Source: Obrimoposthia wandeli (Eukaryota). From it: DNA of 64,000 nt. Location: positions 124,001 through 188,000 of the forward strand of contig CDROCS010003087.1 of NCBI GenBank assembly GCA_977020255.1. Direction: 5' to 3'. The translations under genes and the position numbers were made by a program. The notes beneath the pieces are model-generated. The model saw nothing but the letters and a program-made list of their open reading frames with translations. It was not told where the DNA came from and made no database searches. This document shows, piece by piece, positions 2 to 34,650 of this stretch (the first letter of the stretch is position 1; each line of letters starts with the position of its first letter).

Positions 2-3000
2 AATCCATCTCTCTCAATCAACGTATTTACATTCAATAGGTTCTCTAATGTGCAAACAGATGGGGATATCTTCAAAAATCCCTATGTGGATGTCATTTAC
101 AGGACCACAAACCCGGACGCTAAGCCAATCAATCTTCTCATTTTAGAAAATAATGATAATTTTCATTATGTCGGTATTCCTAAACTCAATAGGCTGCTTA
201 ATTATAGGAACAGAGGTGTATCTAATCGCATCCAGTGTACTTGGTGCCATAAGTGTCTTCATGGCTTCCGGAGACCAATAAGTTACGCCAAACACGTTCC
301 ACTCTGTAGGATGAATTTAGATCATAAAACGCTTTATTCAATGCTTACAGAGAAGCATATTGAGTTTAAGGACTTTTCAGAAACGATTTCTCCGCCTTTT
401 GCTGTTTACGCGGACTTTGAGGCTGTGCTGCCGCCACATGGAATCCACCATCAGATTCAGCTTCCAATCTCGGCCGGTATGCTCATGTCTCCCGTTGCAG
501 CCACGAGAGGGTATACACATGATTACTCGGTCTTTATCGGAGAATCTTGTGTGGTATCCTTTTTGCAGAAATTAGAGGACTTGGCGAAAGAGGTTGTACT
601 CCCATGGTACAAAAAGCATGCGATCGAGGTGATCCGACAACTCACACAGGAACAGGTATCGAGTTTCAATGCAGCAAGAATCTGTTATCTGTGTAAGAAG
701 AAACTCGCAAACAAAGTTCGAGATCACGATCACATGACTGGCGAATACCTGGGAGCAGCGCATACGAAATGCAACTTATCAAGGAGAATCAATCGATCTT
801 TTCCCGACATTTTTCACAATCTTATGGGTTATGACATGCACCATATATTGAAGCACGCACTATGCAAGTTTCCCGACTGGAATGTATCTGTTATACCTCA
901 ATCAACAGAGAAATTCCAGGCTATGATGGTGTATATTGGAGGAGTCTGTATACGTTTCATCGATTCCCTTCAATTTTTGAACAGCAGCTTAGAAAAACTT
1001 GTGGAAAACCTGGGTGTGACTCCTCTTACACATTCGCTCTTCCCGCAACATCTGGTGAGCGCCAAGGGAATCTTCCCATACGATATGGCAGTATCAGAGA
1101 CTGCTCTTCGCGCAATCACCAGCTTACCGCCAAAGTGGGATGAGAAGATCAAGCCAGCACAATATGAAATGGCGAAGATGGTCTGGACTCAGAGCGGCTG
1201 CTCATCGCTCTGGGACTATATGCTGGTCTATATGAAGATGGACGTCTACCTTCTAGCAGAGGTGTTTACAGCATTCCGGACCAAGGCCATTGCTGACGAT
1301 GGATTGGAGCCACTCAATTTCTTCTCCATCCCTGGTTTGTATTTTACTAATTTTTTCTAATTTTAGACACTAACACATATATATATATATACATGTATAA
1401 GAATAAATGTAGTACTTGTTACTATTGATTGCATAAAGATGCAGGTTTTTGCAATATAGATGCAGCACGTCTTTGTAAGATATGATGATTGTCTTTGTTA
1501 GACACACACGTGACTGTCTTTGTAGGTATAGGTGACTGTCTTTGTTAGATACTCACACACATATATACATGTATAAGAATAAATGTTACTATTGATTACA
1601 TAAAGATGCAAGTATTTGCAATATAGATGCGTGACCGTCTTTGTTAGATAGATGATTTTCACAATGATTTTCACAATGATTTTCACAATGATTTTAATAA
1701 ATGATTTTATTTCCAGGACTGACTTTCGCGAGTGCTTTCAAATCCCTGCTTCGTCCGGCTTCTTCTTCTGCTCCCGTTGTGCGAGTCGAGCTAATACAGG
1801 ATCCAGAAATGTACCGACTCTTCCGGTCTGGGATTCGCGGGAGTATGACATTTGTTAATGAACACCGCGTTGACGCCATCAATGGTACAGAACTTTTGTA
1901 CATTGATGTAAATAATTTGTACGGGTGGGCTATGTCCCAGTGTTTACCTTGTGGTAACTTTTCCTGGGTGACTGATCGGTTAGAGTTGGGGAATATTATT
2001 TCCAGCTTAAAATCAGTAGATTTATCCTGTAGTCGCTTCGCTCATTTATTGGAAATAGATTTATCCATTCCTTTCGAGCTTCATAATAAATTCGACGATC
2101 TTCCCCTTGCTCCCATTAAACAGCGTCCACCAGGGTGTAAGACTGAAAAATTGTTATTAACGCATTACCCTAAGAAACATTATGTTGTGCATTCTAGATT
2201 GCTACAAATGTACGTTAGACTTGGTGCTAAGGTAGATTTTGTATATAGAGCAATACAGTTTGAACAAACTAATGTTTTTTCAAAATATATTGAGGATAAT
2301 TCTCTCAAAAGAGCTGCGGCTACAACAGATTTCGAGCGGGATTATTATAAACTGAAGGTGAATTCTTTATTTGGAAAACTCATTGAGAATCTGATGAAAA
2401 GAATTAACCTCCGGATTTGTAATACTCCACAGAAGCTGGTTACCTATTGCAGTAAAGCCCACTTTCGTAGGACAATCGAAATCGATATGGACCTTATTGC
2501 AGTTTTACTGGATAAGGAAAATATTGTTTTGGATCGTCCTAGTTACATGGGCCAGGCGGTATTAGATTTAAGCAAACATCGTATGTATGAGCTACAATAT
2601 GAGCAGTTGGAGAAATATCGAGTTCAATTTAACTGCGACATTAGAATTATAGCGGGTGACACTGATAGCTTTTTCTTGAAGTGTAATAATGTCAATGTTC
2701 AAGAATCACTGTTACCTGCTATGATTGCTGATGGACTGTTAGATACCTCGAAATTTCCAAAAACCCATCCGCTTTATACGACGTTTAATACAGCGATAGG
2801 AAAATTTAAGGGATTATTTAGTTATAGGCAAGGGATTTTTCTACGACCAAAATCATATAGCCTAGAGACTACAGAAGGTGAATCTCAGATGAGAGCGAAA
2901 GGTATTAGTCTCCGACAGACGAGTATTAGGCACTCTAATTACTTAGCCGTATATGAGAGTGGCGTTAGCGAGCGTGTACAACAACAACGTATAAGCTCGC

Positions 3001-3131
3001 TAAATCATCAACTTTTTACTGTAAGGTTAAGTAAAATTGCCTTAAGCAGTAGTGATGATAAGCGCAAGTGGGTGGAGAAAAACCGTTCTGTCGCCTATGG
3101 TCACTTTTTATACCCGGACGAGGTTGTATAA
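2..3131 (+). CDS. polB: Polinton/Maverick protein-primed family B DNA polymerase (copy 1). 5' end lies outside the window; spliced join(2..1334,1717..3131).
   Basis: Frame is open from position 2. ExoI YADFE, ExoII FHNLMGYD, ExoIII YMKMDV, endonuclease VII-like HDHMTG..AAHTKCN, and polymerase motifs YIDVNNLYG, KLKVNSLFGK and AGDTDS are all intact. The two ORFs join in frame (IPG/LTFASAFK) across a GT-AG intron. Confidence 0.93.
1335..1716 (+). other. Phase-1 spliceosomal intron (382 nt) in polB
   Basis: Donor CCTG|GTTTGT and acceptor TTTTATTTCCAG|GA. Removal gives ATC CCT GGA CTG ACT TTC, matching the uninterrupted paralog FFSIPGLSWASALK at about 8610-8650. Confidence 0.85.
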
Positions 3132-3847: not shown

Positions 3848-4138
3848 CTTTGTTCCAGAAGTCACACATCTACCTACTCTATCATTAGAAATATGGGTAA
3901 TTTGGATAAGAATATAAACAATGGCGTATCACTGGATGAATTCAAAACCAAATATCAATTTTTCACGTTTGTTTTAGCCCCTGACTTTGATATCACGCAA
4001 AACCAATTAGCAAAACAGGGTAATTTACGCCTTGACATCCAGTTTCACAAGTCATTAACAGTCCCAACAAACGTACTGATTTACGGGATTTTTGATTCTG
4101 AGTTTGAAATAACTAAAGGCCGACGTGTGATTGTATGA
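3845..4138 (+). pseudogene. C-terminal fragment of Polinton double-jelly-roll major capsid protein
   Basis: NGVSLDEF..FFTFVLAPDFD..GNLRLDIQF..NVLIYGIFDSEFEI matches the Polinton/adintovirus MCP C-terminus and the MCP pseudogenes at about 15 and 25 kb. It is truncated at the repeat array. Confidence 0.82.
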
Positions 4139-4192
4139 AGTGAGTTTTTTAATTTATGTTTTAAGATTATATTAACAACAAGTACTGTTCAG

Positions 4193-4516
4193 GTGAATGA
4201 AATAACTAGTTTGCTGCTCGGACCACGATTTAAGGGTGTATACCCGTTGGAAAAAATCCCAACATTAACGCCTGGTGGATATATTGTCAATACCCATACC
4301 TCAAATCTTCCTGGAGAACACTGGATTGCGTTATTCGTGAGACGGAATTCTGTAAATGTGTATGACCCTCTTGGATTATACTATCCGGGAAAACCTATCA
4401 AGCATGTAGAGTCTCAAGGAAAACATGTATATTACAACAAAATTCGTTCTCAAAATTCACTGACTACTAATTGCGGTCCACTATGTAACTTATGGTTGTA
4501 TGATCAAACTATATAA
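4193..4516 (+). CDS. Adenain-like (clan CE) cysteine maturation protease of the Polinton
   Basis: Catalytic set GEHW / YDPLG / Q..TTNCG..C is intact. The gene follows the MCP, and a polyA-like AATAAA lies near 4548. The start codon is uncertain (GTG). Confidence 0.87.
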   Translation: MNEITSLLLGPRFKGVYPLEKIPTLTPGGYIVNTHTSNLPGEHWIALFVRRNSVNVYDPLGLYYPGKPIKHVESQGKHVYYNKIRSQNSLTTNCGPLCNLWLYDQTI

Positions 4517-4778
4517 ATGTCAAACCTTTTTATTTGTGTTAATTGGTAATAAAATTTGTATTCAAAAGCGTATTTGTTTTATAAATAGCTTCAACTACCC
4601 TATCGAAATTTTTAAAAAAATTTTTTTTAGAGTTTTGATAAATTAAAAAATTGATTTAAAATCTACTAGTTAAGAGAAAATTAATGGTGTGAATTATTTT
4701 TTAAAATTCAAAGTCTAACGGTGTGAGTATCAGTTATGAATAAATATCATAATTGATTGACCGTAATTAACCTTTATG

Positions 4779-4917
4779 ATCACGTGTGTAGCAACTAGGG
4801 AATAAAGGGTTTTTATTACACATTCCTAGTTTGTAAGTACACACGTGATGTGTGATGTGTGTGCATCTAGGGCAGCAACTACACTGATTGTGAACCATAT
4901 ATAAACAATCAGTGTAG
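4779..4917 (+). promoter_or_regulatory. Putative polB promoter of copy 2: two inverted repeats, the second with TATATAAA in its loop
   Basis: ATCACGTGTGTA/TACACACGTGAT (4779-4790 and 4838-4849); CTACACTGATTGT/ACAATCAGTGTAG (4879-4891 and 4905-4917); TATA at 4898-4905, about 100 nt upstream of ATG 5004. Confidence 0.6.
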
Positions 4918-4950
4918 ATTCATGCATCAATTTTATCACAATTATCAAAA

Positions 4951-5003
4951 GTAAGTATTTTGATTTTATTTTAATTTTATTTAATTTTTTTTTTTTTTTT
5001 TAG
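4951..5003 (+). other. 5'-UTR intron (53 nt)
   Basis: GTAAGT donor, long T tract, and TAG acceptor immediately before ATG 5004. Confidence 0.75.
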
Positions 5004-5109
5004 ATGTCGAAAATTATTTTTGCCTTCAATGGTAAGAAAAGATGGACGATGAAGCCTGTAGTCGATGTTGATGATGATATCGACTTGGATGCGACACCTG
5101 TTAAGAAAG

Positions 5110-5149
5110 GTAATTTTCGATTATTATTTTTAATTTAATTTTCATTTAG
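5110..5149 (+). other. Phase-1 intron (40 nt) in the polB polyprotein leader
   Basis: G|GTAATT...TTCATTTAG|CA joins the 35-codon exon from ATG 5004 in frame to ORF 5152..6402. Confidence 0.78.
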
Positions 5150-5187
5150 CAATGCCCAGTGTCACACCAATATCGATTTCGCCATGG

Positions 5188-5505
5188 NNNNNNNNNNNNN
5201 NNNNNNNNNNNNNNNNNNNNNNNNNNNNNNNNNNNNNNNNNNNNNNNNNNNNNNNNNNNNNNNNNNNNNNNNNNNNNNNNNNNNNNNNNNNNNNNNNNNN
5301 NNNNNNNNNNNNNNNNNNNNNNNNNNNNNNNNNNNNNNNNNNNNNNNNNNNNNNNNNNNNNNNNNNNNNNNNNNNNNNNNNNNNNNNNNNNNNNNNNNNN
5401 NNNNNNNNNNNNNNNNNNNNNNNNNNNNNNNNNNNNNNNNNNNNNNNNNNNNNNNNNNNNNNNNNNNNNNNNNNNNNNNNNNNNNNNNNNNNNNNNNNNN
5501 NNNNN
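5188..5505. other. Assembly gap (N run)
   Basis: Run of N bases. Confidence 0.98.
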
Positions 5506-5684
5506 AATCAGACAATTTCTGATGATGATGAAAAGAAGAAAATGTCAAAAGTTTTTTTATCTTCTGCTCAGTCTCTACTTCCTTCTTCTTCATCTTCTCA
5601 TTCTCATGTTGTTTTGTCTCCATATGATAATCATTTAAATAAACTTTTTGGGGACATAAGTGATATAAAATCTAATTCTCCCGA

Positions 5685-5739
5685 CTGCGATAGCTGCCCG
5701 GTAACTCGGGGCAGTCTAACTCCTGGTATGGGGTCGCAG
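5685..5739 (+). repeat. 55-nt GC-rich motif, copy A (copy B at 11053..11107); can fold as a three-way junction
   Basis: CTGCGA/TCGCAG closing stem plus two internal stems; 7 substitutions between the copies. Confidence 0.7.
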
Positions 5740-5994
5740 AACAAGTTAATTAAATCAAGAGGTTACCCCTTACTTTTTAAACCAGGGACACCTGTTATAT
5801 CACCTGTTAATTCGGTAGAAAATTTCGATGTAAATGAGATATACTCGGGTTTTGAAAATATCCCGTTTAAAAAATCTTTTAATCAGTTAAAGAAAGTTAA
5901 AAATCAAAATATTGATTTAAGTAAACTGAAAACAGAAGGTAGGAGGGGTAAACGATTTCGTCAGAAGCTGCGTAGATTGAGAAAACTACCAGCA

Positions 5995-6213
5995 GATATA
6001 ACAATATTTGCAAATTTATTAGGGTCTTGCAAACCCATTAATATTAGTCCAGGTCTGAAAATTACAGATCTGGCAAATAAATTATATGAAGTCTTCAGGA
6101 CTGACCAAATTTATTTTAACCGTAATGGCATGCCCTTTGAAAGGGAAGCTATTATCGGCGATGTTTTACATGAGGGGGCTATTATCCATGTATACCCTAA
6201 ACTTCGTGGAGGA
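5995..6213 (+). other. Ubiquitin-like domain ending in LRGG within the copy 2 polyprotein
   Basis: About 73 aa, DITIFANLLG...HEGAIIHVYPKLRGG, which parallels the ubiquitin C-terminus ESTLHLVLRLRGG in length and pattern. Confidence 0.72.
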
Positions 6214-8509
6214 AGTAACTTATGTACATTGTACAAGTATTGCACAAACGTTAATCATGGAATAGAATGTCATAGTGTAATGCTTAAATATTGTAAATTT
6301 AAAAGCGGTTTTATTTGTCCACATTGTGATGTGTTATATTGTATTGACTATCAAACATTTTATAATGATCATAAGGGTCATCTGACGTATTTTAAATCTT
6401 AAAAGTCAGCATACAAACGTAAAGTAATGATAGTACCAACAATAGACAACAATAAAATAGCAAAAACTGATAATTTTAATGAAGAGTTTGATGTGGTAGA
6501 CTCGTGGGAACCGGATAGTGTTGTAGAAATTGATACTTATCCTGAAGTTGTAGAAATTATTGAGCCTTTAACCCCTAATGAAATCTTAAATAATAATAAT
6601 ATTGATGAACTTATAGATCAGGACGAGTTTATAACAGAAAATGATATTTTCGACTCACTCCTAACTATTACGGATGATGACTTTGATAATATTGTTACAA
6701 TTAATTCAGATAATACATTAACTTTTAACAATCAAATAGGAGGTGGAATTCAATCAAACCTTGTTTTTGATGTTAGTGGATTAAACATGCTTAAACTATA
6801 CATTAACGATAATATGCTAACTGAACTTACTAGCAGTATAGATGTGTTTGGTCCCTGTAAAATACAGTTTGGTGTTGAAACCGAATTTGTCAATAACGAG
6901 GGTCAACATAAAACATGGCATGTAAGCTGTAAAGCAAATATTTTTGAACAAGATTTTATCACTACAAGAACAGTTGAGCTCAACAATAAAATTGAAATTT
7001 ATAAGGATATGAGTTCGGGATGGTCAGTATTTAAAATTCTGTTGGTATCCTTTAAATTTACTGCACTTTCAAACGTAGCAGGATCATCATTTATAAAAAC
7101 CCCGGTTGCGCTTGCTAAACATTATCTATAGTGAACGTAAATAATACTGATGATCAGTGTTTTAAATACGCTGTTCTCAGTATCCTACACTATAAAGATT
7201 TCAATCGAAACAGACAAAGAGTTGAAAACTATAAGGATTATTTAAATGAACTTATATGCGAGCCTGGTCCTATGAGGATAGACGGCATCAAGGCGTTTGA
7301 AAAATTCAATAATATTTCGATAACAGTATTATCCTATAAACCTACAAAGGTAGAGCCTCATAGTAGTCATCTAGTGTTTAAAAACCCAGATGTTAATGTT
7401 ATTTATAGAACGAGTCTTAAGCAGTGCGAAAAAGTAGTAAACTTGTTGCTGTTGGAACAGAGCAGTAATTATCACTATGCGGGGATTACAAACCTGAATA
7501 GACTTTTAAATACTCAAAAATATAATGTGCGTCTCTTTTGGTGTGATAAATGTTTTTTTTTCGTTTTCGAACCACGATTTCATATGACAAACACAGGGCA
7601 CATTGTAATATTAATACAGATTTAACAACCTTGTTTACAATGCCTAAAGAGATCAAGTGTCAGTTTTCCGACTGGTCTAAATCTATTGCGCCACCATTTG
7701 TTGTATTTGTTGACTTTGAGTCAATACTCGAGCTGCATAATACTTTCAAACACATTCATAAACCAATATATATATAGGGATGATTTTGAAAAACAACACT
7801 AATAATTCAATACAATATTTCAGTTATTACGGTCTGCAGTGTGCTAAAAACTTTGTAGATAAATTAACTGAGTTGATAAATGGTGAAGTGGCAGATTTTT
7901 GGGTAAATAGTATTAATGTTCCTATGGTTTTACTAAATAATAACATGTTGAACTTTAGAGATTGCACTAATTATATCTTTGTAAAAAATTAAACGATCGT
8001 ATGGTTAGAGATCATGATCATATCACGGGTAAATACTTGGGTGCGGCATGCAACAAATGCAATTTAAGTCGCAAGTTTGCAAAGAGACCGGTTTTACCTG
8101 TGGTGTTTCATAACCTTATGGGTTATGATATACATCATATTTTAAAATATGCCGACTTGAAAGGTAAATCCTTTTCAATTATCCCTAAATCAAGTGAAAA
8201 GTTCATGTCCCTCCGTATAGAGATGAAGAGGGGACATTGAAATTATTGATTCATACCTTTAAACGTCAAGTCTTGAATCCTTAGTTTCATACTTTGCCAG
8301 AGTTGTCCTTATACTACACAATACCTAAACCCTAATATTGCAACAAGTAAGGCGGTATTTCCATATGAATATATTAGTGGTGTTGATGGAGGCTTATGGA
8401 GAGGCAGTTACCCATAAATCTGTTTCTTCACTCCGAGTCACTGATCAACAATATAATGAAGCCCTAATGATCTGGACCGTATTAGGGTGTAATACTATTA
8501 AAGACTACA

Positions 8510-9500
8510 TGATTGAGTATATGAAACTTGACGTGTATCTGTTATGTGATGTTTTTGAGGCCTTCAGACAGAAAGTAACGGATGATGATAATCTAGAGGC
8601 GCTCAATTTCTTTAGTATCCCCGGTCTCAGTTGGGCTAGCGCATTAAAAACATTAGAGTATGATGTGGATTTATTGCATGATCCCGAAATGTATAACATG
8701 TTTGAGGCAGGGATACGGGAGGGATGACTTTCATCAATAAACATTACGTTAAAACAACAGATGAAACATTCCTCCTATACATTGACATAAATAACCTATA
8801 TGGCTGGGCCTTGAGTCAACCGTTACCACATACAGATTTTACATGGGTATATGACGGTTTGGAAGCGATAATTGAGCTTATAACTGAGAGGGATATTCAC
8901 AGTAATATGCAGGACTTAAGTCTTAAAGAACATGGATACTTGTTGGAAATTGATTTACGCATACCCATCAGTATTCATGATAAACTTGATGACTTACCGA
9001 TTGCGTGATTGAGTATATGAAACTTGACGTGTATCTGTTATGTGATGTTTTTGAGGCCTTCAGACAGAAAGTAACGGATGATGATAATCTAGAGGCGCTC
9101 AATTTCTTTAGTATCCCCGGTCTCAGTTGGGCTAGCGCATTAAAAACATTAGAGTATGATGTGGATTTATTGCATGATCCCGAAATGTATAACATGTTTG
9201 AGGTAGGATACGGGAGGGATGACTTTCATCAATAAACATTACGTTAAAACAACAGATGAAACATTCCTCCTATACATTGACATAAATAACCTATATGGCT
9301 GGGCCTTGAGTCAACCGTTACCACATACAGATTTTACATGGGTATATGACGGTTTGGAAGCGATAATTGAGCTTATAACTGAGAGGGATATTCACAGTAA
9401 TATGCAGGACTTAAGTCTTAAAGAACATGGATACTTGTTGGAAATTGCTTCGCGCATACCCACTAGTATTCATGATAAACTTGATGACTTACCGATTGCG
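8510..9500 (+). repeat. Tandem duplication (about 495 nt x2) inside polB copy 2
   Basis: 8510..9005 and 9006..9500 are near-identical with a few substitutions and a 1-nt indel. Confidence 0.95.
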
Positions 9501-11052
9501 CCTAATAGAGAAATCCCTCCCGGCTCAAAAGCTTCAAAGCTGATGATGACCCATGAGGATAAAAATAATTACTTCATACACTCACAACTACTACAATTTT
9601 ACTTGTTTCTGGGTGCAGAAATTAAACAAGTGCATATAGCAATAAAGTTTCATCAAGCTCCTATATTTAAAACATATATTGATATCAATAGCCGGAAACT
9701 GGCAGAGGGTACTACTACATTTGATAAAGAGTTTTATAAACTCAAAAATAACTCAAAATATGGTAAAACAGTGGAAAATCTTAAAACGTAAAGCAAGAAT
9801 GATCGTCAGTTTACTAAACTTGTTTCAAGCCCTTGATTTTAAGAAGCATACCCAAATAACCGACAATCTCAATCTTTTTATTTATAAAAGAAAGAAATTT
9901 GTCTGGATCGACCATCATATATTGGTCAAGCTGTGTTGGACTTATCTAAAACCCGCTGCATGTCAAATCACAGTATAGTTATTCTATCGGTAATGTAAGC
10001 AATATCATTGTGATATCAAATATGGAAGTTGCAATGGATACAGACTTTTTTTCTTAGAGTGCTATTAAGTAGATAAAAGATGTCTCTAAAAACAAATGAT
10101 TAAAGATCAGATGTTAGATACTAGTAATTACCTGCCCTGATGAGTTATTTACCATTCCCATCGAAATGTGATTGGCAAGTTTTGAAGACAGAAAGCAAGT
10201 GGGATAGTGCTTATGATGAATGGATATTTCTGAAAACCTGCTACTCATTGAAAACGATATGAGGGCTAAATCTCCTTAAAAACAAACCGAAATCAGACAT
10301 GAGCATTACATAAAGTGTTATGGCGTTGATGATGAAATTATAACTGCCGGTCAGACACGTATTTTATCTCGTAATCATCAATTATTTACAATGTATAATG
10401 ATAAAATTAGTGTTAAGGTGTTATGACGATAAAAGGTTTTGGATTGAGAAAACAAACTGTCGCATATGGACACTATAGTCTAAGATAGGTGTATATAAAA
10501 TCTGGGGGTAATCTCTGTTATTGACTAGTTCCTTCTTATTTTTAATGCGACAGTAGTGTATCATTTTAAACATAGTATGTATATATTTTTAATGCTATAG
10601 TATGTATATATTTTTATTGATGTTTATTTTTACCGCATTGTATGTATCATAAATTCATGTCTTGACTTCCTGCTACTAGCTATTCATTGATACTTCATTT
10701 GATAATTTCAACAAATTATCTATAAATATATACACACATTTCAACCAATTTCTGCTTATGCTTCAAATGACTACTTCTAAAAAGAAAAAATTGCAAGCTT
10801 CCTCTTATGATAACTCCTTGAGTCTACCTGATGGCTCAGTATACTGAAAAGTACTTTAACTTTATTTGTTGCAATGAACTTTTTGTCTCAAGGATTGAAG
10901 AACTTTATATGTATCACCTGTTTAATGGAGACTTTAAACCTAAAGTTGCAACAATCATTAAAATAGAAGAAGAAGAAAGCATGGATTGTGACAATGAATA
11001 TAACTTTTTACTAGACTCCTACTATAAACAATAACGTTTCTTAAGATAAAAA

Positions 11053-11107
11053 CTGCGATAGCTGTCCGGTTATGCGAGGCAGTCTAACTCCTGGAATGAG
11101 GTCGCAG
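11053..11107 (+). repeat. 55-nt GC-rich motif, copy B, just 3' of a small degenerate ORF (10831..11034)
   Basis: 48/55 identity to 5685..5739. Confidence 0.7.
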
Positions 11108-11363
11108 TACTAAGTAAATTAAATAGTTGCAAATAAAAACATGGGATTTGTCAATTGTAAGCTTAATTTCAAAATTTTATTTTTAGAATTTTAATTTGTA
11201 AATTTTTAAATTAATATTTAATTTCAATATTTAATATTTAATTTCCATATTTAATTTTTGAATTTCCATATTTAATTTTTGAATTTTGAATTAAAATTTT
11301 GAATTTTTGAATTAAATTTTGAATTTTTGAATTTTTGAACTATATGCTTAATGTTTACAGAAT

Positions 11364-13014
11364 TGTTAGGATTAGGTTTTAAATTTAATTAAAATAATTA
11401 AACTTTTTATATTAAAAAAATAAAAAATCCTGAAAGCAAAGGTTATGTAATTAGATAAATTAATTATAAGAATTAATTCATAAAATAAAAGTAGTGGGAA
11501 AATAAGTTACACTTCACGAAGGTCATGTGTACATGGTTATATATTTAAATTATTAAAAGGCCCAAAATTATAATTTACTAAAGAAGCCCAAGAAACAGGA
11601 ATATTATGAAGGTGCTGAAATTCACCAAGTGACTAATCAGTTGTGTCAAATAAGAAGAATTTATAAGTGACTCATCTAGCAGTGCTTAAGCCAAGTCGTT
11701 ATTTTAGCGGAACGCTTGATCCTAGAACCGGGGTAAGCACTTATATTATGTAAGTAAACAACATTGTTTACAGAGCCAACAAGCTGAATGACACTTGTGG
11801 ACAGAGCCGAATCGAATTCGCCGGATCCAAACCATAGTAAGTACACTTATATTAAGTGTAAGTAAAAAATATTGTTTACAGAGCCAACAAGCTTGGCCAA
11901 ATTTTGCAAACAGAGCCGAAAACCTGAGCGCGTCACATTACATTATTGACAAAGCTCAGCCTATTGGAAGAAGGTGAGCTATAAGTAAACCCAAGTAATT
12001 ACTGATTTGTTGCAAAGTTATTATTGTGCCGAAAGTTTGGAATCAGAAAGACCATGATCAAATCCGAGCGACGTTTAATTGTGGAAGAAAAGTCTCGGCG
12101 ATAGATTCCGGAGCACCCAAATCGAGAGAAGCAAACAAAGCGGAAACGAAGAAGCAAAGGCAGCACAACTTAAAAACGAGGAGAGACCGTCAGAATCACC
12201 ACCCAGAACGATAACCGTACAATGCGATCATCACAGCACGTCAAGAGTACTCCAGCAGAGGATTCTGATCGATGGTCTGAGGAGAGGCCAATCAAGACCG
12301 GACGCCAGATTATACGGAGGAGGTAAGGAACAAGCGCGGAAATAAAGTAGATTGATTTTAGAAGTAATTTTGAAGCCGATTGATTTTAGAAGTAATTTTG
12401 AAAACCAATTGATTAAATAGTAATTTTAAGAGTAATTTTGGAAACCGATTGATTAAATAGTAATTTTGAAGCCGAATGATTTTAAGAGTAATTTTGGAAA
12501 GCCGATTGATTAAATAGTAATTTTGAAAGCCGATTGATTAAATAGTGATTTTGATTGATTTGAAGCCTCTATAAATTAGAGCAAGTTTGTAATCGTTAAA
12601 TTACTAGAAAGACTCTATAAATTAGAGCAAGTTTTGATTTTGTGCAGTTACCAATATACTAGAAAGACTTTATAAACCTTCAACCCTAAAATTAAAATCG
12701 ATACGTGGATCATCCCTACTTGTGTAGAGACTTACAGGAATTTTATTGTAATTTTTAGAACGTACTTAGACGTGTCAATTTGTGTTAAATTAGTGTGCTT
12801 AATAAAAAAAGATTTCCTACAACTAGAAAGCGTTGTTATAAACCCTTCAGATTAAGACAAAACAACAAACCTTCAGATAAGAATTGAGACAGGCAAGCAT
12901 AACATTAAGTAGGCCACAACCATCTTTAAGTCCTGCTTCTATAGAACTCACGTTGGGGCCCTCCACAATCAGAGGATCTATATTAGAACACAGTTTCATA
13001 TAGAAACCCCAACA
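11364..13014 (+). mobile_element. Solo LTR (about 1.65 kb) of a Ty3/Gypsy family inserted in the Polinton
   Basis: Ends TGTT...AACA; 4-bp target-site duplication GAAT on both sides; 3' part homologous to the LTR at 44347..46743; internal tandem repeats at about 12345-12560. Confidence 0.85.
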
Positions 13015-14244: not shown

Positions 14245-14673
14245 CTAATTTTTGTAAATTACATTTTTAAACATTTTTACGAAGTCATCATTGAGATCAT
14301 CCGGGTCCGTATTCCTCCGACTAAGTATAATTGGAGAAAGCGGTACTGGTTCCTTCTTCTTTGGCCGGCCCGGTTTCTTTTTCGGCTTCACCGGTTGCTG
14401 TACAGCAATTGTCCTTCCCTCAGGTTTTGGCAATAGTTGCCGCAACTTTTTGGGAGGAGGTGCAGCCGATGTTGATGGCCCCGACATAGAAGCAGTAGCC
14501 TTCCTCTTCCGCGGAGCTTTCTTCTGTTTCTCCTCCTTCTCACGCTGAAGCTGGCGTGAGACGGCATCCTGTTGCCCACGCGAATCTGGAAGCATTGCCG
14601 GTATATGTATTACTCGTTGATCCACCGCGGGCCCAGAGGGCACGCTTTGTCCAATTTTACGGCCTATAATCAA
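14245..14673 (-). CDS. Basic Pro-rich Polinton terminal protein with an AT-hook-like KKKPGRPKKK motif
   Basis: ORF adjacent to the terminus; homolog at about 30820-31050 in the same position relative to another terminus. Confidence 0.6.
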   Translation of the reverse strand: MIIGRKIGQSVPSGPAVDQRVIHIPAMLPDSRGQQDAVSRQLQREKEEKQKKAPRKRKATASMSGPSTSAAPPPKKLRQLLPKPEGRTIAVQQPVKPKKKPGRPKKKEPVPLSPIILSRRNTDPDDLNDDFVKMFKNVIYKN

Positions 14674-14789
14674 AATTTTGGGAGCATTATGAGATTTTTA
14701 AATTTAAAGGGTGTTATATGGAGTTAATTTTTTTTTTGAGTGTTTGGGAGGGGGGCTAGAAAATTTTTCTACACACCTGCACGAAATTT

Positions 14790-14875
14790 CACTCCACACA
14801 CATGCACGATTTTAAAGGACAGTAGGGGGGAGGGGGTGTAGATTAGACCGGACACATCCACCTACTACACTTACT
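14790..14875 (-). mobile_element. Polinton terminus (element lies to the left); reads AGTAAGTGTAGTAGG inward
   Basis: AGT-starting end typical of Polintons; homologous sequence at about 24740-24811, 27100-27141, 30461-30550 and 39855-39886. Confidence 0.8.
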
Positions 14876-16060
14876 TCATCCTAAAATTGCACGTTTGCTT
14901 TAAGTTACTTAAATTTCAGTATCAAAAACACCGAAAATTATAATGTTTAATGGATATTCTAATCCTGTGAGAAACTTTACGTCAAATCTCAGATTACATT
15001 GTCTCGGTAATTTTGTGTATTTACATCAAAGTCAGGGGCCAATGCGAATGTGAAAAATGGACAACGTTCCTATAAATCTTCAGATGTTATACCTATGTTT
15101 ATATTCTTATCCAATAATCCCATGTTTCTAACCAGTGATTGTATATACGCAAATATGTACTCATATTTTTAAAGATTGTAGTGTATGTTTCAACAAAATC
15201 AGTGTTTCTACTAATGGATTGAGCCGACATTATAATGATCAAATTATGAAGAGTCTGTTGCAGTTGACCTATACATTTTAGGATTATGTTGAAATGTAAC
15301 AAAAGTAAATTTAGGTAATTGTTCATCATCAAAAATAGGTGAATTATTAAATGTTGTAGCGCCTTTAGATAGTGAATAATGTACATTTTCCCCCGTCTAT
15401 AGGGATAAACCAAATTTTGAGTTTCCAAACCAACATTATGAGCCATCAATACTTATGGTTCAACTCTCAAACGTCTAACTTTCATTTTAGTATCTAAAAA
15501 CTTTATTCTACAATGATTTGCACCTGTTTTTAAAGACAACTTTGAATTGGAAATAATCAATTTTTTACCGACATTCATACAGGGATTCGTGTTAAACGAA
15601 GATTTACATTTACACTGGGAATTAATTATTTAATGTAAGATATTTAAGAGTCATCAAATTATTCGTGTTATGAATTCTGTGAAGCTATCAATAGTCAAAC
15701 ATGAATATTTAATTGAAATTTTAACAAAATCTGATTTTGATTAATTCAAAAGTATTTAAGAATTCTACATACCTGATTTGTATATGAAGGAAATTATTTT
15801 AAGATTGAAGCTGATCTTAGTCTTATTTTTAGAGATCATCTTAGTAATTTGATTGACGCACATTTAGAAGAAATATGTAAGATTTCAATAAGAATTCATA
15901 GAACTATGTTGCTGGCGATGAAACAGTACAACCTCTGGACTTTACATGAAGCTAATATGACATTTTAAATTTAATATTTGTGTTGATTTAATAAATGTAA
16001 TTAAAGTTCGAGTCAGGGTCACAGATGGTGGTTGGTAGAGATTGAGGATATATTTTTGAT
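14876..16060 (-). pseudogene. Polinton major capsid protein pseudogene
   Basis: VLMAHNVGLETQNLVYPYRR..QLPKFTFV..FDHYNV..IIIFGVFDTEI, with many stops and shifts. The stop TGA abuts the terminus at 14875. Confidence 0.75.
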
Positions 16061-16922
16061 ATTTATAGCTTGTTACAATTGACTTTCAATATTTTTATTT
16101 CGTTTATTGATTAAATTTTCAAGTACAAAGTACCAGTATTTTTAAAATTTTAAGTTTTAATATATTTTAAGTGATTTCTTGTTTTTAAATTTTAAAATAT
16201 TTATATTTCATACATATATATATATTTAATGAACATTAATTACTCACAAAGTGAAACAAATATATTTTCAAATTTTAGGAGAATAATAAACAAGCGTGTG
16301 TTTTTTTAAAGATCCAGATACTGATGAAGGTGGAGAGAGTATTCTATTTAACAGAAAGTATTGAAGAATACAATATTGTTTGCCCTAATTACCAATTATA
16401 GTGAGAAAAAGAAGATTTAGGGAATAGGTTTTAAAGGTTATATTAACAGCTAATCGGCGTAAATAACCAAAATTGAAAGTGACATTAAAAAATGTATTTT
16501 ATTTTACATTGCAGATAGTGCCAGATATGAAATTAGATTTGTGAGTACATGACGATGCCTAAAAAAAATATATATATATATATGATTGAAATGTAAAACG
16601 GTTACAAGAGAATGACAAATCAGAACAATATCTAGCTAAAATCCTACACAAAGTTTCGAAATAAAGGCAACACGAATATTGAACAAGCTGAACCTCATAC
16701 AGTGTACTATCAACAAGTCCTGTAAACCACAGGCTGTCACATATGATGTTAATTTCCTTTTGATAGCTTAAGCAGTTAGTTAATGTTTACTTAAAAATAT
16801 AACGACAGTCTTGTCAAAATTAAATAAAAAACTTTGACTGAACAGGATTCAGCCAATTTGACTAACTCAATAGTAAATATCAATCGTGTACTTTTCTTAT
16901 CCAAAATGTAATCAATTCACCA

Positions 16923-17849
16923 ATGAATGAATCTCAGACAAATACGTCGTGCAACATCACTAATCAATATTATAAATGGCTACTGAACATATGTATTCCA
17001 TCGATCCGGCTAACGGTAGCCTCATTGGGGATTTGCAGTTGTATTTTGTCACTGTTCCTGCTGGTTATTCTTCGAACGCCGCGAATGCATATATTCACTT
17101 TGTCACATCTTGTTACAGAATCGCTGGCAGATCTTTTCTATTGTTCCTTTGGAATTTTGTTTTCTATCAACAGACTATGTCAGATGAATCTACTAACAGA
17201 GTTACATAATTGCATCATGGACTCATATACACTGAATAGCTTACAGATGATCCGTAATTGGGCCATATTCGTAATGGCTGCCGAAAGATTCTTCATTGTT
17301 CGATTTCCAACTGCTTCGAGGATAAAGACCCTGAAACTAAAACAGGCTTTCTGGTCGCTGTCAATAATTATCATTTCCGGCTTTAGTGTAAATGTCTATT
17401 TTATAACGAGATTCAATGTTTGCTACAAAAATATCAGTAATCTAGCTTATCGGAATTTCTTTATAATGGATCTCATTATAGGTCTTCTAGTCATTCCTGT
17501 ACCGTTGCTGGCAATGTTTGGCTTCACTGTAGGTACAGTAATTGTTGTAAAGAAAATCCAACGCAAGGCATACTTAAACAAGACTAGTGGATCAAATAAC
17601 ATCAACTTCACGAGGCTGACAATGGTGCTCATAATTTCTTTCTTCTATTTTCTTGTTTCTGTGCCATTCATTTTCGGTTACCCCATAAATGCTGTGCAAT
17701 TGCTCAGTGAAGACGAAATCCATATTTTTAATAATGCAATTACAATATTTTACAATTCTTCCGGTATAGGAAAAGGATTTCTATATGTTTATTTTACTTG
17801 GAAATACAATAGAAATAAAATAACTACAAAAAATGACGCTCTATGCTAA
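16923..17849 (+). CDS. Intronless class A (rhodopsin-like) 7TM GPCR, peptide/chemoreceptor-like orphan
   Basis: 308 aa, about seven hydrophobic segments, N-glycosylation sites in the N-terminus, TM2 SLADL, and TM3 AERF..VRFP. Confidence 0.85.
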   Translation: MNESQTNTSCNITNQYYKWLLNICIPSIRLTVASLGICSCILSLFLLVILRTPRMHIFTLSHLVTESLADLFYCSFGILFSINRLCQMNLLTELHNCIMDSYTLNSLQMIRNWAIFVMAAERFFIVRFPTASRIKTLKLKQAFWSLSIIIISGFSVNVYFITRFNVCYKNISNLAYRNFFIMDLIIGLLVIPVPLLAMFGFTVGTVIVVKKIQRKAYLNKTSGSNNINFTRLTMVLIISFFYFLVSVPFIFGYPINAVQLLSEDEIHIFNNAITIFYNSSGIGKGFLYVYFTWKYNRNKITTKNDALC

Positions 17850-19089: not shown

Positions 19090-21050
19090 CACAAGTCTAA
19101 AAAGAAACATGAATTAACTTGGTCTCATGATATAGAAGAAGCATTTAGTCATATAAAAAGACTTCTAACAACTGCACCCATTCTAGTTATACCTAATAAC
19201 AAAGATACATTTATTTTTGACACGGATGCTTGTGATGACACGATTGGAGCAGTGCTGTCACAATTTCAAGATGGAAATGAAAATTTTATTGCATACGCGT
19301 CTCATAAATTAACAAAAGCTGAACAGCATTACTGTGTAACAAGAAAATAATTGTTGAGTGTTTATAAATATACAAAAATGTTTCGGAATTATCTGTTTGG
19401 AAGACGATTTATTATTAGAACTGACCATAAATATCTTTAATGGATGATAAATGGAAATACACCGAGTACAAGTCAATTTCATGCATGGCTAAACGAATTA
19501 AGCGCTTTTGGTATGAATATTAAATATAGAAAAGGAGAGGACTATCTCAATGCAGACTCATTATCAAGAATCCCGGAAGAATGTCAACAATGCTCCATGA
19601 AACATGCAAACCCAAAAAAGAAACGAAACGTTAAAGTATATAATGAAAATGAAAAGAGAATCGGAGTCTATTGTCGAAATATAGTAGCAGAAAATGAAAA
19701 TAGCAAGCAAGAAAATGACAAAAACATCTCATTAATACTAAAATTAATGAAAGAAAATAAGGCAAATAATCCATATTCAAAATAATTACAAAATGGAAAT
19801 AAAGAAGCAAAAACTATATGGAGAAATCGTGAAAATTTAAGAATCAGAGGTGACTTACTACACATCATAAAAGAAGATGAGTACAAATTAATTCTACCTG
19901 AATCTAGACGATTAGAAGTAATAATACAAGCCCATATGATGTATTGGCATACAGACATATCAAAAACAAAAGAGGTCATAGCTCAAAATTATTACTGGCC
20001 GAACATGAATTTTGAAATTAAACTGGCTGTGACAAATTGCAAAGAATGTTTAAGGCGTAAAGTAGGTAGAACTCATATCAATCGAGAAAAAGGGTCATTG
20101 TGTACTGGATACCCATTTGAAACAATATCGATAGATATTACAGGACCATTCCAGGAATCAAGCAAAGGTAATATATAAATTTTAGGTATCATTGACAATT
20201 TCTCTAAATATCCTATGATGATTGCGATGAAAAATGCAACTGCAAAAACCGTGTGCAAATATCTCTTCGAAAGATGGATGAATTGTTTCGGTATCCCTGA
20301 TAAAATACACTCGGATCGAGGGAAATCATTTGAAAATGAATTAATATATGAATTGTGTCACATGTTTGAAATTAGAAAATCACTTAGCGCACCCTACTAT
20401 CCACAAGGTGATGGAATAATCGAAAGTATATTTGGTACAACTAAGGACATGATATTTGCTACGTCACAATCTAAAAGATGTGATTGGGAAGAAGCTATAC
20501 TAACAGTCGAATTGGGTTTGAGAATGACAGTTAACAGAGTTACGGATTTTTCTCCATTTGAAATAATATTTGAATGCAAAATGAAATCTGTATTCCAAAC
20601 AAAAAATGAGCAACTAAGGAAAATAAAAAACACTAATGAGTATATAAACGAACTTAGGAAGAGATTAAGTGAAATTCATAAAATGATTCGAGAAGAGACA
20701 AAGTTATTTGTACCAAAAAAATGAAATGTGCAAACGAATTAAAGAAAGGAGAAATGGTAATGATAACAATACTGCCTGGTATTAAAGGAATTGATCAACC
20801 CAGATATGAAGGGCCATATAAAGTATTATAAATGTTAGGGAAACACTTTTATCAGTTAGAAATAATTTGAGATACAAAAGTAGTGGAGAGAAATATGGTA
20901 CATATTAAAAAAATGAAGGGAGAAAATACACCAGAATCAGAAACACCCACTTCTATAATATTCCAATCCATGGAACTCCCGGATCTGATAACAGAAGATG
21001 AGATGGGACATTCGCAAAAGAAACATCTTAGAAGACAGAGATAGAAACCA
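19090..21050 (+). mobile_element. pol: Ty3/Gypsy pol remnant (RNase H, integrase zinc finger and core)
   Basis: FIFDTDACDDTIGAVLSQ, IAYASHKL, ADSLSR, YYWPNM..C..C, DITGP, IDNFSKY and HSDRG..F, with stops and frameshifts. Confidence 0.9.
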
Positions 21051-22570: not shown

Positions 22571-22619
22571 GATATTCTAAATCAATATAAACCAAAGTAA
22601 ACCAAATATAGACTTATAT

Positions 22620-23150
22620 ATGATTTTACCGAGTAATAGTTGTCCGAAAACTCAACTTAATAATATGTCTTCATTATTCACTGTAGATTGGGAGAATCCA
22701 ATTACTTTAAATGGTAAATTGGAGGCGGCATTAACTGAATTTACGTATACAAACACTCCTGTTATTTTAAATAAGTTTAGTGAAATTAATTATTATAATA
22801 AATTAACCAATCAACAGATTGATCAAATATCTTTATCGGTTAATCTTACTCAAGTAGAAGTAGAAACGAAAAAACCACGATTGCATGGTGATAAATCAGA
22901 ACCAAAGGTTATTAAAAAGACAATTAATAAAATAGCAAGTCACATCTAAAGATAAGATTGCAAAGCGTTCTATCTCCTTAATCACAGTTGGTGTAGGTGT
23001 TGATAAAAAGGATAATGTTGTACTAATAAAATCCAAGATGAATGTTTACGCTAAACATGAATTAAGATACCTTTTCAATACATCAACTTCAGATATTTTC
23101 TAATCTAATGATAATTTACTTGAATATTATAGAAGGATGCCAGATATCCC
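22620..23150 (+). pseudogene. Polinton minor capsid (penton) remnant
   Basis: ILPSNSCP..FTVDWENPITLNGKLEAALTEF, the N-terminal penton motif. Confidence 0.8.
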
Positions 23151-24054
23151 AGTTGAGTCCCTGGCAACTCCTGGATGCATTGGCTGGCTATGATCTCCGG
23201 TTTCAGCGGTCTCTCCAATGAAGTCACCAAAGCTTCTATATAAAAATAAAAATAAAGGAATTAAATAATCCAACCTGATTCGTTGTCTTTATTCTCCTAT
23301 CTCGTCTCACGGGAGTCTGCGGCCTTTGGAATATTTCAGGCATTGTGTCGTCTACAGTTGAAGTAACATGAGGGGTAATACCGTCCCATTTATCTGTAAA
23401 GATACTCCACTCACCATCGTTCAACTTAGCGATAATTGAGTCGTTCATGGCTGGATTACTGCTGCTTACCGGGAGACTTGGGGTATCCCACTCGTCGAGG
23501 AAAGAAGTGAGATCCACGTCCTCGTCAAACTCTACCATAATACTGTCTCTGATTTGTCAGACTACAGTATCGCATTGGAGAGCAGGATTTAGGCCTGTCC
23601 CATTCGTTGATGAAAGGAGTCGACAGTATGAAACTCGTATCATTCGCGGTCGGTTCTTTGAAGAGGTCCTCGTCAGTCTGGAGCGAGGATTGTCTGCAGC
23701 TGAGACAACGGGATCAACTTCCACGGGCATTTGATGACAGCCGTAAAATTGTTGAAGATATTGGTCGGTTTCCTTGCTGCTTCAGCCAAAGTTGATGAAC
23801 GAGCTACTGTATTCTGTCGAGGAGTACAGTCTTCAATTGACTCCTTACTAATGAAGTCTATATGTTGGGATCCTCTTGGTTTTTTAGGAATCGAAGTGGC
23901 GAGAAGATCTTTCATGAGCTCACCTTGGCTGACCACCGTCGAGTCTTGACTAAGAAAGTCCATGCACTGTGACGGTAGTGGCATTCGCTTATTTACTGGA
24001 GAGAGATCTTCATACAGCTGCAACTCAATCTCTTCGTCTAGGTCAACATTGCTG
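23150..24054 (-). pseudogene. Degenerate acidic/low-complexity Polinton accessory gene
   Basis: Collinear ORFs 23673..24023 and 23236..23538 with stops; elevated GC; TATA-like and AG acceptor signals upstream. Confidence 0.5.
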
Positions 24055-24269
24055 TAAAAGGGAATTTTTGATTTATGTAAAATAATTATAAGAGATCTCC
24101 TTATATAAAGACTAACCCTCTTTCATCGTCCAATAAGAGCATGTTATTCAAATAATTAATTTAAAAATCTGTAGTTTTTTGACTATGTCTATGTTCAATT
24201 TATTTATTCAACAAATGAAGTGTGTATTGAATTAAAAAACACTTATACAATTATTAAAGTCGAATATAT

Positions 24270-24490
24270 GGATTTAGTGGCAGTGATATGATACGGTCAA
24301 ACACGTGCGGACAAATTGTTGAATTTCAGGAGCTAAATGGTAAGCCAAGAATCGTAGAGAACTGCTCAAAATCGCTGTTGATGGAATTCAAATATCATAT
24401 GTGCTTTGAATTTCAGTTTGCCAACTTTATCATAGTACCATCCACCACCAATAAACTGCTGTTGTGCAGTTGAAAAGTGTATGTATGTTT
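24270..24490 (-). pseudogene. Conserved unknown Polinton subterminal ORF, copy A
   Basis: FSTAQQQFIGGGWYYDKVGKLK..YLNSINSDFEQ; homolog at 26760..27097. Confidence 0.6.
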
Positions 24491-24739
24491 GAGTTACATG
24501 TATGTATTTTTATGTAGTTTGAGTAGTATAGGAAGGTGTGTGTGAGTGTAGTTGGATATATTTAAAGTAAATACTGTCACGCCTGAAGGGCGCAATTTTT
24601 TGTAGTTACTTTCGCGCCTGGAGAGCGCTAATTTGGGTCACTCGGAGGGGCGAGATCGGTTGGCCACATCCTCCCCTGTGACCGGGCAAAATGTTTGGTG
24701 GAGAGACCACCCCTTCGAGGGAGTTTAAGACAGGACAGA

Positions 24740-24811: not shown

Positions 24812-24814
24812 CAT

Positions 24815-32005: not shown

Positions 32006-32042
32006 AACACTTTTTACATTTCAATCCCCGATTTTTGAAATA

Positions 32043-32896
32043 ATGAATATGGTAAGAACCTTTATTTTATTATTCTTTATCAATATTTATTATTTCAGAT
32101 TACGTGTAACGTATTCCCTGTGTATTGTGGTGCATCGGCTCCAAATGGAGAAGATTCCTGCATAGCGATAATGTCCACCTACTATCGGACAAAGTCTCAA
32201 GGGAGGGTATTCTTCGTATGCCCCTTCTGCAGAACTATAGACGACAAGGAGTTTCGAGACTTCTTCAATGAACATCGAGATCACTTGTCCTGCTTCACGG
32301 CCAACAACAAGAAGAGGGCCTTCGTGCAATTAGTGCGCAATTTGCAAGTCGCTCCAGCTCTAGCTCCTGTCCCATTTGCTGCATTTCAAGCCGTCTACGG
32401 TCCTGTAATTGGTCCTTCTCTCCCGTCTCTCGATTCTGCAGCTGTCTCATCCACTCAAATGACTAACAATGAGTGGATGAACGGCATCTCTTAAGAAGAT
32501 TTTGAGGACTTGACGCCAACAACCCAACTCTCGAACAATGACTGGATGGAAAATATCACCCAGTCAGATTTCGAGATGGAGCAGCCTCAGTGGAGCGACA
32601 ACAGCTGGTTGGAGGACATCGAGGAATCCGATTTCGTTGAGTTAACATACGACAGCTGGATGGATTCCATCAATGAAGAGGACTTTCAACCAGCTACAGT
32701 TGATTCAGCTTCATCAGGTACTTTTTTATTATTATTTTTCTGATTATTTTTTAAAATTGTAATTAAAGATATTTTATTTTATTTTTTATTTTTTATTCGG
32801 GAAATACCTTGAGACAACCGATGCCGTCATCTGCTACGACAGCTATGCTTCCTCCATCGCGAGTGCCTAGATCGATGTTTGCACGCCTTATAGGTA

Positions 32897-32943
<47 letters not shown>

Positions 32944-34650
32944 ATATATTTATTTCAGCAGATGCATCCACAGCCTCTACAACAGCCGCTTCCTGTTCTT
33001 CCCCGTCAGCAATGTCATCTTCAACTACATCAGCTACTGGATACTCAAATACAGCATCTACAAGTGCCATCGCCTCAACATCTTCAACATCACTTTCTTC
33101 AGCAGCACCGTCTACATCAAACGCGATTGCTTCAACTTTAGCAGCACAGACATATTTAAATATAAATAGTTGTCTTCCCATTCAATTAGGGGAAGTTTGT
33201 CAGTGACTCTAGGAAGAAAGAGGCGAGGCCAATTTCTTAATAAGGTCCCACCAAAGAAACGTAGGGAAAACAGTGCTACTATAGAATATCACCTAAATTA
33301 AAAAATATATAGTTAAGGTGCCATTAGGAAATAAAATTTTATTAATCGTAGGTGTAGATTTAAATATTGAAAGTCTTTTAAAATCAGAAATGACTAAATT
33401 AGAACAGGCTAAGGTTCAATTTTGCGCAACAGTGCAGTTTAAAAATGTCAATGAAGAGTCTAAAACTTGGGTAATTTCACATAAAGCAACTGTTTTTTAT
33501 GATAATTTTGCAACTGAAATTGGAAGAAATCTCGATGAAACAATTGCTAAATATAGCGAGTTAAGTAGTGAATGGACTCTAGTTAGAATTCACGATGTTA
33601 GCTTTGTTTTAACAAAGTTCAATGTCATCATATATTTTTCGAGTAGTTCATACATTCCTTCACCTAGATCTCTTCAACTTTCACGTTCCATTGTTAACGT
33701 ACAAAACAGTGATAACCTTTGCTTTCTGTATAGCGTGTTGGCTATCCTCAAAAGGGATGTAATTACTGAGCATAGAGAGCGTGTCAGTAAATATACCCCT
33801 TTTAAATGAATTGCAGTATCATGGAATAGATTTTCCTGTTAAATTAACTGCGATATCAAGATTTGAACATCTTAATAACTTGAGTAATAATGTATACAAA
33901 TATAATACTGATATCCCAGTTAATGTATCAGATGAATAAATGTTTAAAAATCCTTTTGTAGATGTGATTTACAGGAGCAAAAATGAGGGGATTTCGGTCA
34001 ACTTAATTTTGCTCGAACATAATAAGAAATTATACTATGCTGCAATTCCTAATATAGATCGTCTTCTAAATTTAGATAATAGAGCCTTACCAGTTAGGAT
34101 AAGGTGTAAATGGTGTCATAGATGTTTGCATGGATTCCGATCCGAGTTCTCTTTCAGCAAACATCTGACATTATGTACACTGAATCCTGATGACAATACA
34201 CTATATAGCATGCTTAAGGATAAGGATTAAAATTCAGAGATTGGGCAAAATGCATACCCGTGGAATTCGGGATGTATGTTGATTTTGAGTCAATTTTAGC
34301 ATTGGACGACCAGTATGAGAGTATTCACCTACCGGCTTCGGCAGGACTATTATTCTTAGGCCCCAATATAACTCAGGATCATAAATATTTCTGTTCAAAT
34401 TGTATTTTAGATTTTATATTAAAATTAGAAGAATTTATGAACTGTAATTGTCAAACCGTGATATGATCTTAATGCTCATCAAGCAATGATCATAACAGGC
34501 ATAGATTGGGTTAATTTTAATTCTAGTATATCATGTTATTTGTGTGGTACCCATTCTAAGTTAGTCAGAGATCACGATCATGTTACGGGGCGATACTTGG
34601 GATCGGCATGCAACCTCTGTAACCTTGGCCGTCTAAAAAAAAACATGCAT
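32043..34650 (+). pseudogene. polB: Spliced, degenerate, 3'-truncated pPolB polyprotein (copy 6); introns 32052..32098, 32718..32800 and 32894..32958
   Basis: Each intron removal restores the frame to the next ORF. Downstream: SDNLCFLYSVLA, MYVDFES and HDHVTG..ACNLCN. Confidence 0.82.

Follow-up and report, generated by a model that had tools for sequence, protein, structure and literature searches.

The locus raises the question of what a 73-residue domain ending in LRGG/S (the slash marking the domain boundary) is doing inside the PolB polyprotein of a mobile DNA element, and whether the chain is cut behind its two glycines. The window, i.e. the whole stretch of 64,000 nucleotides of Obrimoposthia wandeli DNA that was analysed, holds a damaged copy of this element, which a first-pass annotation described as a candidate self-processing system with a ubiquitin-like domain (Ubl) as a cleavable cap. 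On balance, and with little more than even confidence, we favour a reading of the sequences in which one Polinton lineage added to its PolB polyprotein a leader that ends in a Ubl and is likely cut after Gly-Gly. The features of the window copy are the following.

3878..11417, + strand: 3′ part of a family-A Polinton/adintovirus, 5′-truncated, with 88-96% blastn identity to natural copies.
3878..4135, + strand: 3′ fragment of the major capsid protein gene, 96.5% identical in amino acids to the capsid ORF of natural copy L023.
4139..4516, + strand: adenain (vUlp1-type) maturation protease, an open frame with HW, YD and Q..C motifs in translation.
5004..5109, + strand: predicted first PolB coding exon (MSKIIFAF...), in phase with the Ubl frame of the window.
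5110-5149, + strand: predicted GT-AG intron of 40 nt, directly after that exon.
5935..5991, + strand: basic patch directly 5′ of the Ubl, by its sequence probably NLS-like or DNA-binding.
5995..6213, + strand: predicted ubiquitin-fold (beta-grasp) domain of 73 aa (AF2 model), ending in LRGG/S, with LRGG at 6202-6213.
6214..6399, + strand: Cys/His module, likely zinc-binding (tblastn and motif rows).
6400..6402, + strand: premature stop TAA of the window copy.
6403..6732, + strand: acidic linker, poorly conserved (39% identity to family D).
6733..6744, + strand: QIGG, by its pattern a likely adenain-type maturation site before the TP.
6748..7071, + strand: putative terminal-protein (TP) domain, with a candidate linking Ser (SGW) at 7015-7017, positioned like D1 in the accessible part of PMC11161782.
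7072..7089, + strand: TP-vOTU linker NVAGSS, candidate vOTU cleavage region.
7090..7500, + strand: predicted vOTU-type cysteine protease domain, with Cys at 7158-7160, His at 7473-7475 and a frame change near its start in the window copy.
7501..10485, + strand: C2H2 finger, exonuclease with an endonuclease-VII insert and PolB palm, with many breaks in the window copy, among them a 495-bp tandem duplication.

The family-A element is a Polinton/adintovirus present in many copies in the genome, and the window copy is truncated. Complete copies carry TBP-like, IAP, A32 ATPase, pX-like core, integrase, penton, capsid, adenain and PolB genes in an element of ~14 kb, with inverted repeats of ~290 bp flanking the gene set, and Pfam matches on homologous ORFs of the window or the family comprise rve, Pox_A32, Adeno_PX and DNA_pol_B_2. 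The adenain ORF at 4139..4516 gave no Pfam match and is named from its position and from motifs that we take to be those of the family. In one copy (L039) the IAP (BIR + RING) lies at 5000-5902 and the TBP-like gene at 4632-4961; a TBP-like gene is also found in family D, introduced below. A search of the genome itself with the Ubl and Cys/His module as query yielded 11,415 first-look candidates, the best 150 of which are element copies of at least 97% identity, a figure that is a lower bound and not a copy number.

The named motifs of the window copy lie where they had been placed, with the 73-residue domain ending in LRGG/S, the Cys/His module, the TAA, the acidic linker and QIGG all confirmed by translation, and, beyond a frame change at about 7095-7128, DDQCF at 7149-7163 and YHYAG at 7470-7484. 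That these parts belong to one polyprotein is borne out by the intact copies that were then sought: in 12/12 fetched family-A copies, picked for long frames, the Ubl, QIGG, protease motif and PolB share one frame of 1516-1559 codons, unbroken at the position of the TAA, the Cys/His dyad is present, and the order is leader, basic patch, Ubl ending in GG/S, Cys/His module, acidic linker, QIGG, TP-like region, Cys/His protease motif and PolB. The upstream exon is in phase with the PolB frame in all 12 and stop-free in 10 of them, given the predicted splice, and from the predicted ATG to the end of the GG there are 310-350 codons, so that the Ubl is not N-terminal. Coverage of the element is even in four contig runs from a single sample, and the rows listed for them include no joint at the predicted intron; both results are silent on expression. 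A 71-bp coding stretch of the PolB leader (5684-5754) repeats at 82% identity at 11052-11122, close to the 3′ terminus of the element; in complete copies it also occurs near the left end.

The nature of the domain at 5995..6213 was read from its predicted fold. Pfam gave no family at E<=0.1 for the window Ubl, and neither this Ubl nor six family-D Ubls matched the ubiquitin family (PF00240 and related) above the curated cut-off; a PDB sequence search with the Ubl returned chance matches alone and no ubiquitin; and profile-profile comparison with host ubiquitins (hhalign) reached a probability of 1.0% at E 0.054. Atlas leads were ubiquitin, YukD and TmoB clusters at 0.87-0.88. A single-sequence AlphaFold model (pLDDT 51.5, best Z 4.6), whose best matches were already mostly beta-grasp, was superseded by an AlphaFold2 model (pLDDT 87.3, pTM 0.73) built from 17 naturally occurring variants of two element families, aligned without any ubiquitin row. 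The 50 best VIA rows for this model have Z 10.4-12.3 and rmsd 1.2-2.9 and are nearly all ubiquitin-like by title, the top Z of 12.3 going with an rmsd of 1.5-1.9 over 71-73 residues, and Foldseek places it at TM 0.85-0.87 to ubiquitin, ISG15 and NEDD8 with 14-23% identity. The GG of the model is in register with G75-G76 of ubiquitin. Judged by the model, the segment is, beyond chance, a highly diverged ubiquitin-fold domain, and the beta-grasp fold that the first-pass annotation expected is thus what the check returned; its donor cannot be named, since ubiquitin, ISG15, NEDD8, SUMO and others are tied as matches. Outside the genome no Ubl relative was found among 4504 candidates of 854-2720 aa, among 7998 longer candidates searched with a joint A+D Ubl profile, among 1.84 billion representatives (three matches, one of them real and confined to the module) or among metagenome and viral contigs, all of which are weak blanks, with related animal genomes lying outside the search.

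Two further PolB copies in the window lack the Ubl.

2..3128, + strand: copy 1, a family C PolB, whose 5′ part lies immediately upstream of the window and likewise opens with the Cys/His module, without a Ubl.
32072..34632, + strand: copy 6, a broken family B PolB, starting at the Cys/His module without a Ubl.

As had been noted, copy 1 retains NFHYVGI, and copy 6 has QLG (at ~33183, then a frame change) and NSDNLCFLYSVL. The Cys/His module (C..C..H..C..M..YY..CPxC..F...H..H), which matched no Pfam family over the cut-off, is common to all six PolB families, while the Ubl is present in families A and D and absent in B, C, E and F, in line with the earlier claim that it is lineage-specific. A Ubl profile matched 82 of 145 sequences, with a single match in the window, at the Ubl itself; it matched none of 19 family B/C loci and gave a best E of 0.28 on 12 loci of families E and F. 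In 16 outside relatives Pfam detected no ubiquitin, many of these sequences being short at the N-terminus and Pfam missing the window Ubl as well. In families B and C the PolB starts with an ATG, a short intron and the Cys/His module, in F with a Met directly before the module and in E with a Met before the module, possibly also with a short leader. The first module Cys is residue 3-8 in B, C and F; counted from behind the GG, it would be residue 4 in A and 5 in D. A cut after GG would therefore restore the ancestral start, since sister families B, C and F begin at the module. In a tree of the six families and P0005, A and D form a clade (98/97) with the four Ubl-less families outside, and the simplest reading of the sequences is one gain of the Ubl on the A+D stem; the inner order of the group is not fixed by the tree, so that loss in several lineages is possible.

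Family D came to light when P0021, which carries three tandem repeats homologous to the Cys/His module, was used as a query. Its PolB is ~50-60% identical to that of family A, sits among Polinton genes and carries two tandem Ubls, an inner one (D1) and a module-adjacent one (D2), as in the di-Ubl at L117:1192-1653, preceded by a basic patch that is 39% identical between A and D. The module-adjacent Ubls end in LRGG/S (A) and VFGG/S (D2), and the diglycine is absent in D1: at the D2 end, 22 of the 27 readable loci (out of 30) have xFGG and 5 have one Gly changed, and at the D1 end the 11 readable loci have MFGV (9), MYGV (1) or MFDV (1). The presence of LRGG in 32/32 family-A loci was rejected as a sign of selection, these copies being 97% identical and chosen by likeness to the window. 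With VFGG in the sister family and MFGV in its inner Ubl, LRGG itself is not conserved; what is kept is GG/S. In pairwise Nei-Gojobori comparisons of single natural copies, the Ubls of A and D2 are 42% identical (dN 0.54, dS 2.3), as against 26% for the extension in front of the Ubl (dN 0.88), 60% for the module, 56% for the TP and 50% for the vOTU, and D1 and D2 differ with dN 0.38 and dS 2.7; because dS is near saturation the ratios are rough, and the safe reading is that dN is well below dS. On these comparisons the Ubl is under purifying selection. The retention of GG is seen in two independent lineages only, and two adjacent matches are not rare (~0.18) at a background identity of 42%. 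The pattern of ends in family D looks like that of a di-Ubl with a single processing end, and the conservation of D1 without GG suggests that the Ubl fold does something for which no cut is needed.

QIGG, the second candidate site, occurs in 32/32 family-A loci and in 8 of 14 D loci read; its equivalent is variable in B (QLGGG in 1 of 5 read), SLRGT in C, SIGG in F and devoid of Gly in E, so that a QxGG site is not shared by every family. The element's pX-like core protein has KQKGG/FIG inside its Adeno_PX match (E 3.5e-4). The adenovirus protease, according to the accessible part of PMC4246237, cuts between (M/I/L)xGG and the following residue x, also accepts Gln or Asn at P4 and carries out the maturation of pTP. 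QIGG and LRGG fit this pattern and VFGG does not, the pattern being that of the adenovirus enzyme, from which the Polinton enzyme may differ. Given the same pattern in the core QKGG site and the processing of adenovirus pTP, the best reading of QIGG is, by analogy, an adenain-type site at which the pre-TP is matured; the proposal that QxGG is the vOTU site was set aside, as QIGG resembles the adenain-type core site instead.

Between QIGG and the vOTU lies a putative TP domain that had gone unnamed: this region of ~110 residues can be aligned to the N-terminal domain in every relative, and the Ser of its S-G/N-W motif, mostly followed by Gly or Asn, is invariant in 20/20 alignment rows. In the vOTU motif the Cys is found in 20/20 rows and the His in all 18 rows that reach it; Pfam and Atlas searches of the vOTU region returned no named family. 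By sequence, the TP-like region and the Cys/His protease motif correspond to the D1 (TP) and D2 (vOTU) arrangement in the accessible part of PMC11161782. That part of the paper presents TP-vOTU-PolB, predicts the Polinton vOTU to be an active protease, gives no substrate or cleavage site, and offers as a hypothesis that the vOTU cuts between the TP and itself; an OTU-like domain in adintovirus PolB is also described in the accessible part of PMC8502044. Self-processing by the vOTU had thus already been proposed in print for the TP-vOTU linker. This linker, the third candidate site, has a Gly in 18/20 rows and V, L, Y or M two places earlier in 17/20, reads LRGG, MRGG or LRGS in three relatives, and in A and D (VAGS/S, VSGS/S or VLGS/S) shares hydrophobic-x-G-small/S with both Ubl ends; with His or Arg after the Gly in 5/20 rows, the Gly may be structural and the register of a cut is not fixed.

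In the model that we favour, the basic patch and the Ubl would direct the precursor into the nucleus and restrict how long it lasts or how active it is, following which a cut at GG/S would release a pre-TP-polymerase with the ancestral start. The vOTU would also part the TP from the polymerase at the Gly-containing linker, as proposed in the accessible part of PMC11161782, and adenain would later trim the pre-TP at QIGG, as the adenovirus protease does with pTP. If GG/S is cut, the vOTU would be the leading candidate for the cutter at somewhat less than an even chance, with host deubiquitinases a lesser possibility and adenain a slightly lesser one still. The vOTU is slightly favoured because the P4 Val of family D fits the linker of that same family (VSGS/VLGS) and not the adenain pattern, and because Ser follows in all four sites; the Val-Phe that replaces Leu73-Arg74 of ubiquitin in family D would fit host deubiquitinases poorly. 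A predicted complex of vOTU and Ubl, made without alignments, scored 0.02, which favours neither answer. Of the first proposal, the cap reading is strengthened by the register of the Ubl end with the starts of the sister families, and the assignment of QIGG to the vOTU does not stand. Nor would a free 73-residue modifier be released, a product that was likewise discarded here: a cut after GG would free a leader of ~310-330 aa ending in Ubl-GG.

The most serious competitor to a cleaved leader is an integral, uncut Ubl that targets the protein to the proteasome, binds the ubiquitin system or inhibits the vOTU internally, its GG being a leftover or a hinge. We consider this possible, with a probability well below even. 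The inner Ubl of family D is selected without GG (the D1-D2 comparison above), and Leu8/Leu9 and the aromatics at 40 and 67, which are common to A, D1 and D2, lie in rough register with what we take to be the hydrophobic patch of ubiquitin. The N-terminal Ubls of nematode Maverick cargo proteins moreover appear to limit protein abundance, according to the accessible part of 10.1101/2022.07.12.499685. An uncut domain, however, accounts poorly for GG/S being retained precisely on the Ubl that borders the ancestral start and being lost elsewhere, in an element that encodes two GG-type proteases. A further reading, that the Ubl is a decayed passenger, a host ubiquitin exon once captured and now without a role, could appeal to the many mobile ubiquitin copies in this genome and to the lack of any sequence-level match between the Ubl and host ubiquitins, but dN far below dS, the intact predicted fold and the persistence of the domain in frame in two old families that were amplified separately largely refute it, and we hold it to be very improbable.

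The leader released in the favoured model could itself have a function, as a modifier or decoy that host E1/E2, possibly together with the IAP RING ligase of the element, would activate and that the vOTU would take off again. The C-terminal GG that would be free after a cut, the ISG15/FAT10-like tandem form in family D and the BIR+RING protein of the same element speak for it. The Ubl is, however, only ~20% identical to ubiquitin, with Tyr/Phe-Pro-Lys in place of Val70-Leu71-Arg72, Gln/Lys in place of Arg42 and, in family D, Val-Phe in place of Leu73-Arg74, at positions that are presumably E1 determinants of ubiquitin; the product would carry ~240 further residues, and the ORFs of four stretches of the left arm included none recognisable as an E1 or E2 gene. 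With the residues matching ubiquitin's enzyme-contact surface changed, conjugation is unlikely and forms the least likely branch, so that we give a modifier or decoy little credence. The same slight probability attaches to a private Polinton Ubl circuit, in which the vOTU would be a co-evolved cutter, the leader would be conjugated via the IAP RING or act as a decoy, and the vOTU would reverse the conjugation.

Compared with known systems, the family-A polyprotein shares with the Polinton/adintovirus pPolB of PMC11161782 and PMC8502044, as far as their accessible parts describe it, the TP-like region, Cys/His protease motif, exonuclease and palm, and, around PolB, the integrase, A32 ATPase, adenain and capsid genes and terminal inverted repeats; it differs in a leader ending in Ubl GG/S, and family D in a tandem di-Ubl. 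Known is thus TP-vOTU-PolB, and new are the Ubl leader with GG/S and its tandem form in the sister family. The WASP proteases and KRMA kinases of nematode Mavericks (10.1101/2022.07.12.499685, accessible part) also carry a diverged Ubl that is recognisable mainly by fold, but on cargo genes, at the very N-terminus and without reported GG or cleavage, whereas the family-A Ubl is internal, ends in GG/S and sits on the core replication polyprotein. Adenovirus pTP (accessible part of PMC4246237) likewise has an (M/I/L/Q)xGG-type site ahead of the TP core, as does the pX-like core protein, whereas the Polinton TP is fused to the polymerase, its site has Gln at P4, and families C and E lack the site. 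The ISG15/FAT10/OASL tandem Ubls resemble family D in having two Ubls, with GG only on the second, and domains of ISG15 and OASL rank among the top structural matches, on a par with ubiquitin, with no sign of common descent or conjugation. Ribosomal-protein ubiquitin fusions, which were seen in this genome, similarly place a Ubl-GG directly before the N-terminus that the protein needs; they use near-canonical ubiquitin and host enzymes, in contrast to the ~20% identical family-A Ubl, which shares a chain with its candidate protease. Ubiquitin insertions of pestiviruses are ubiquitin-fusion processing signals cut by host enzymes. No Ubl on a Polinton polymerase was found in the literature searched, supplements, Repbase and most subscription journals lying outside the search, and the term "ubiquitin" does not occur in the accessible parts of PMC12721341 and 10.64898/2026.10.13.758929.

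If the leader is indeed cut, it would be a natural case of a DNA element using the ubiquitin-fusion trick to set the start and the timing of a replication protein. Comparing the families tells apart the Ubl end, QxGG and the TP-vOTU linker as three candidate sites of processing. A folded ubiquitin-like candidate substrate here lies on the same chain as the vOTU, with LRGG/S, VFGG/S and MFGV as built-in controls, and these natural end variants allow the specificity of the vOTU to be probed on small fragments of the protein.

Another fusion of ubiquitin to a mobile-element protein in the genome is ubiquitin-Gag of BEL/Pao retrotransposons, elements whose presence also points to an animal host; several of their lineages (L081-L084, L135, L136, L138, L139, L141, L142 and L144) carry a near-canonical ubiquitin, 57-76% identical to host ubiquitin and often ending in LRGG or LKGG, directly before Gag (DUF1759); "ubiquitin fusion" was not found for BEL/Pao in the literature searched. 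Tandem arrays of Ubls at ~270 bp spacing, 37-51% identical to ubiquitin and without a terminal GG, occur at L137, L140 and L143, and a family-B Polinton contains, on the strand opposite to its own (L134:4462-6150), ubiquitin copies 82-88% identical to that of the host. The window itself also holds other Polinton fragments (2-3128, 14248-15600, 22581-26225 and 32039-37600). Near 19786-20721 and 40415-42881 it contains parts of retrotransposons, and two long ORFs, at 16866-17846 and 27915-28874, are hydrophobic and receptor-like.
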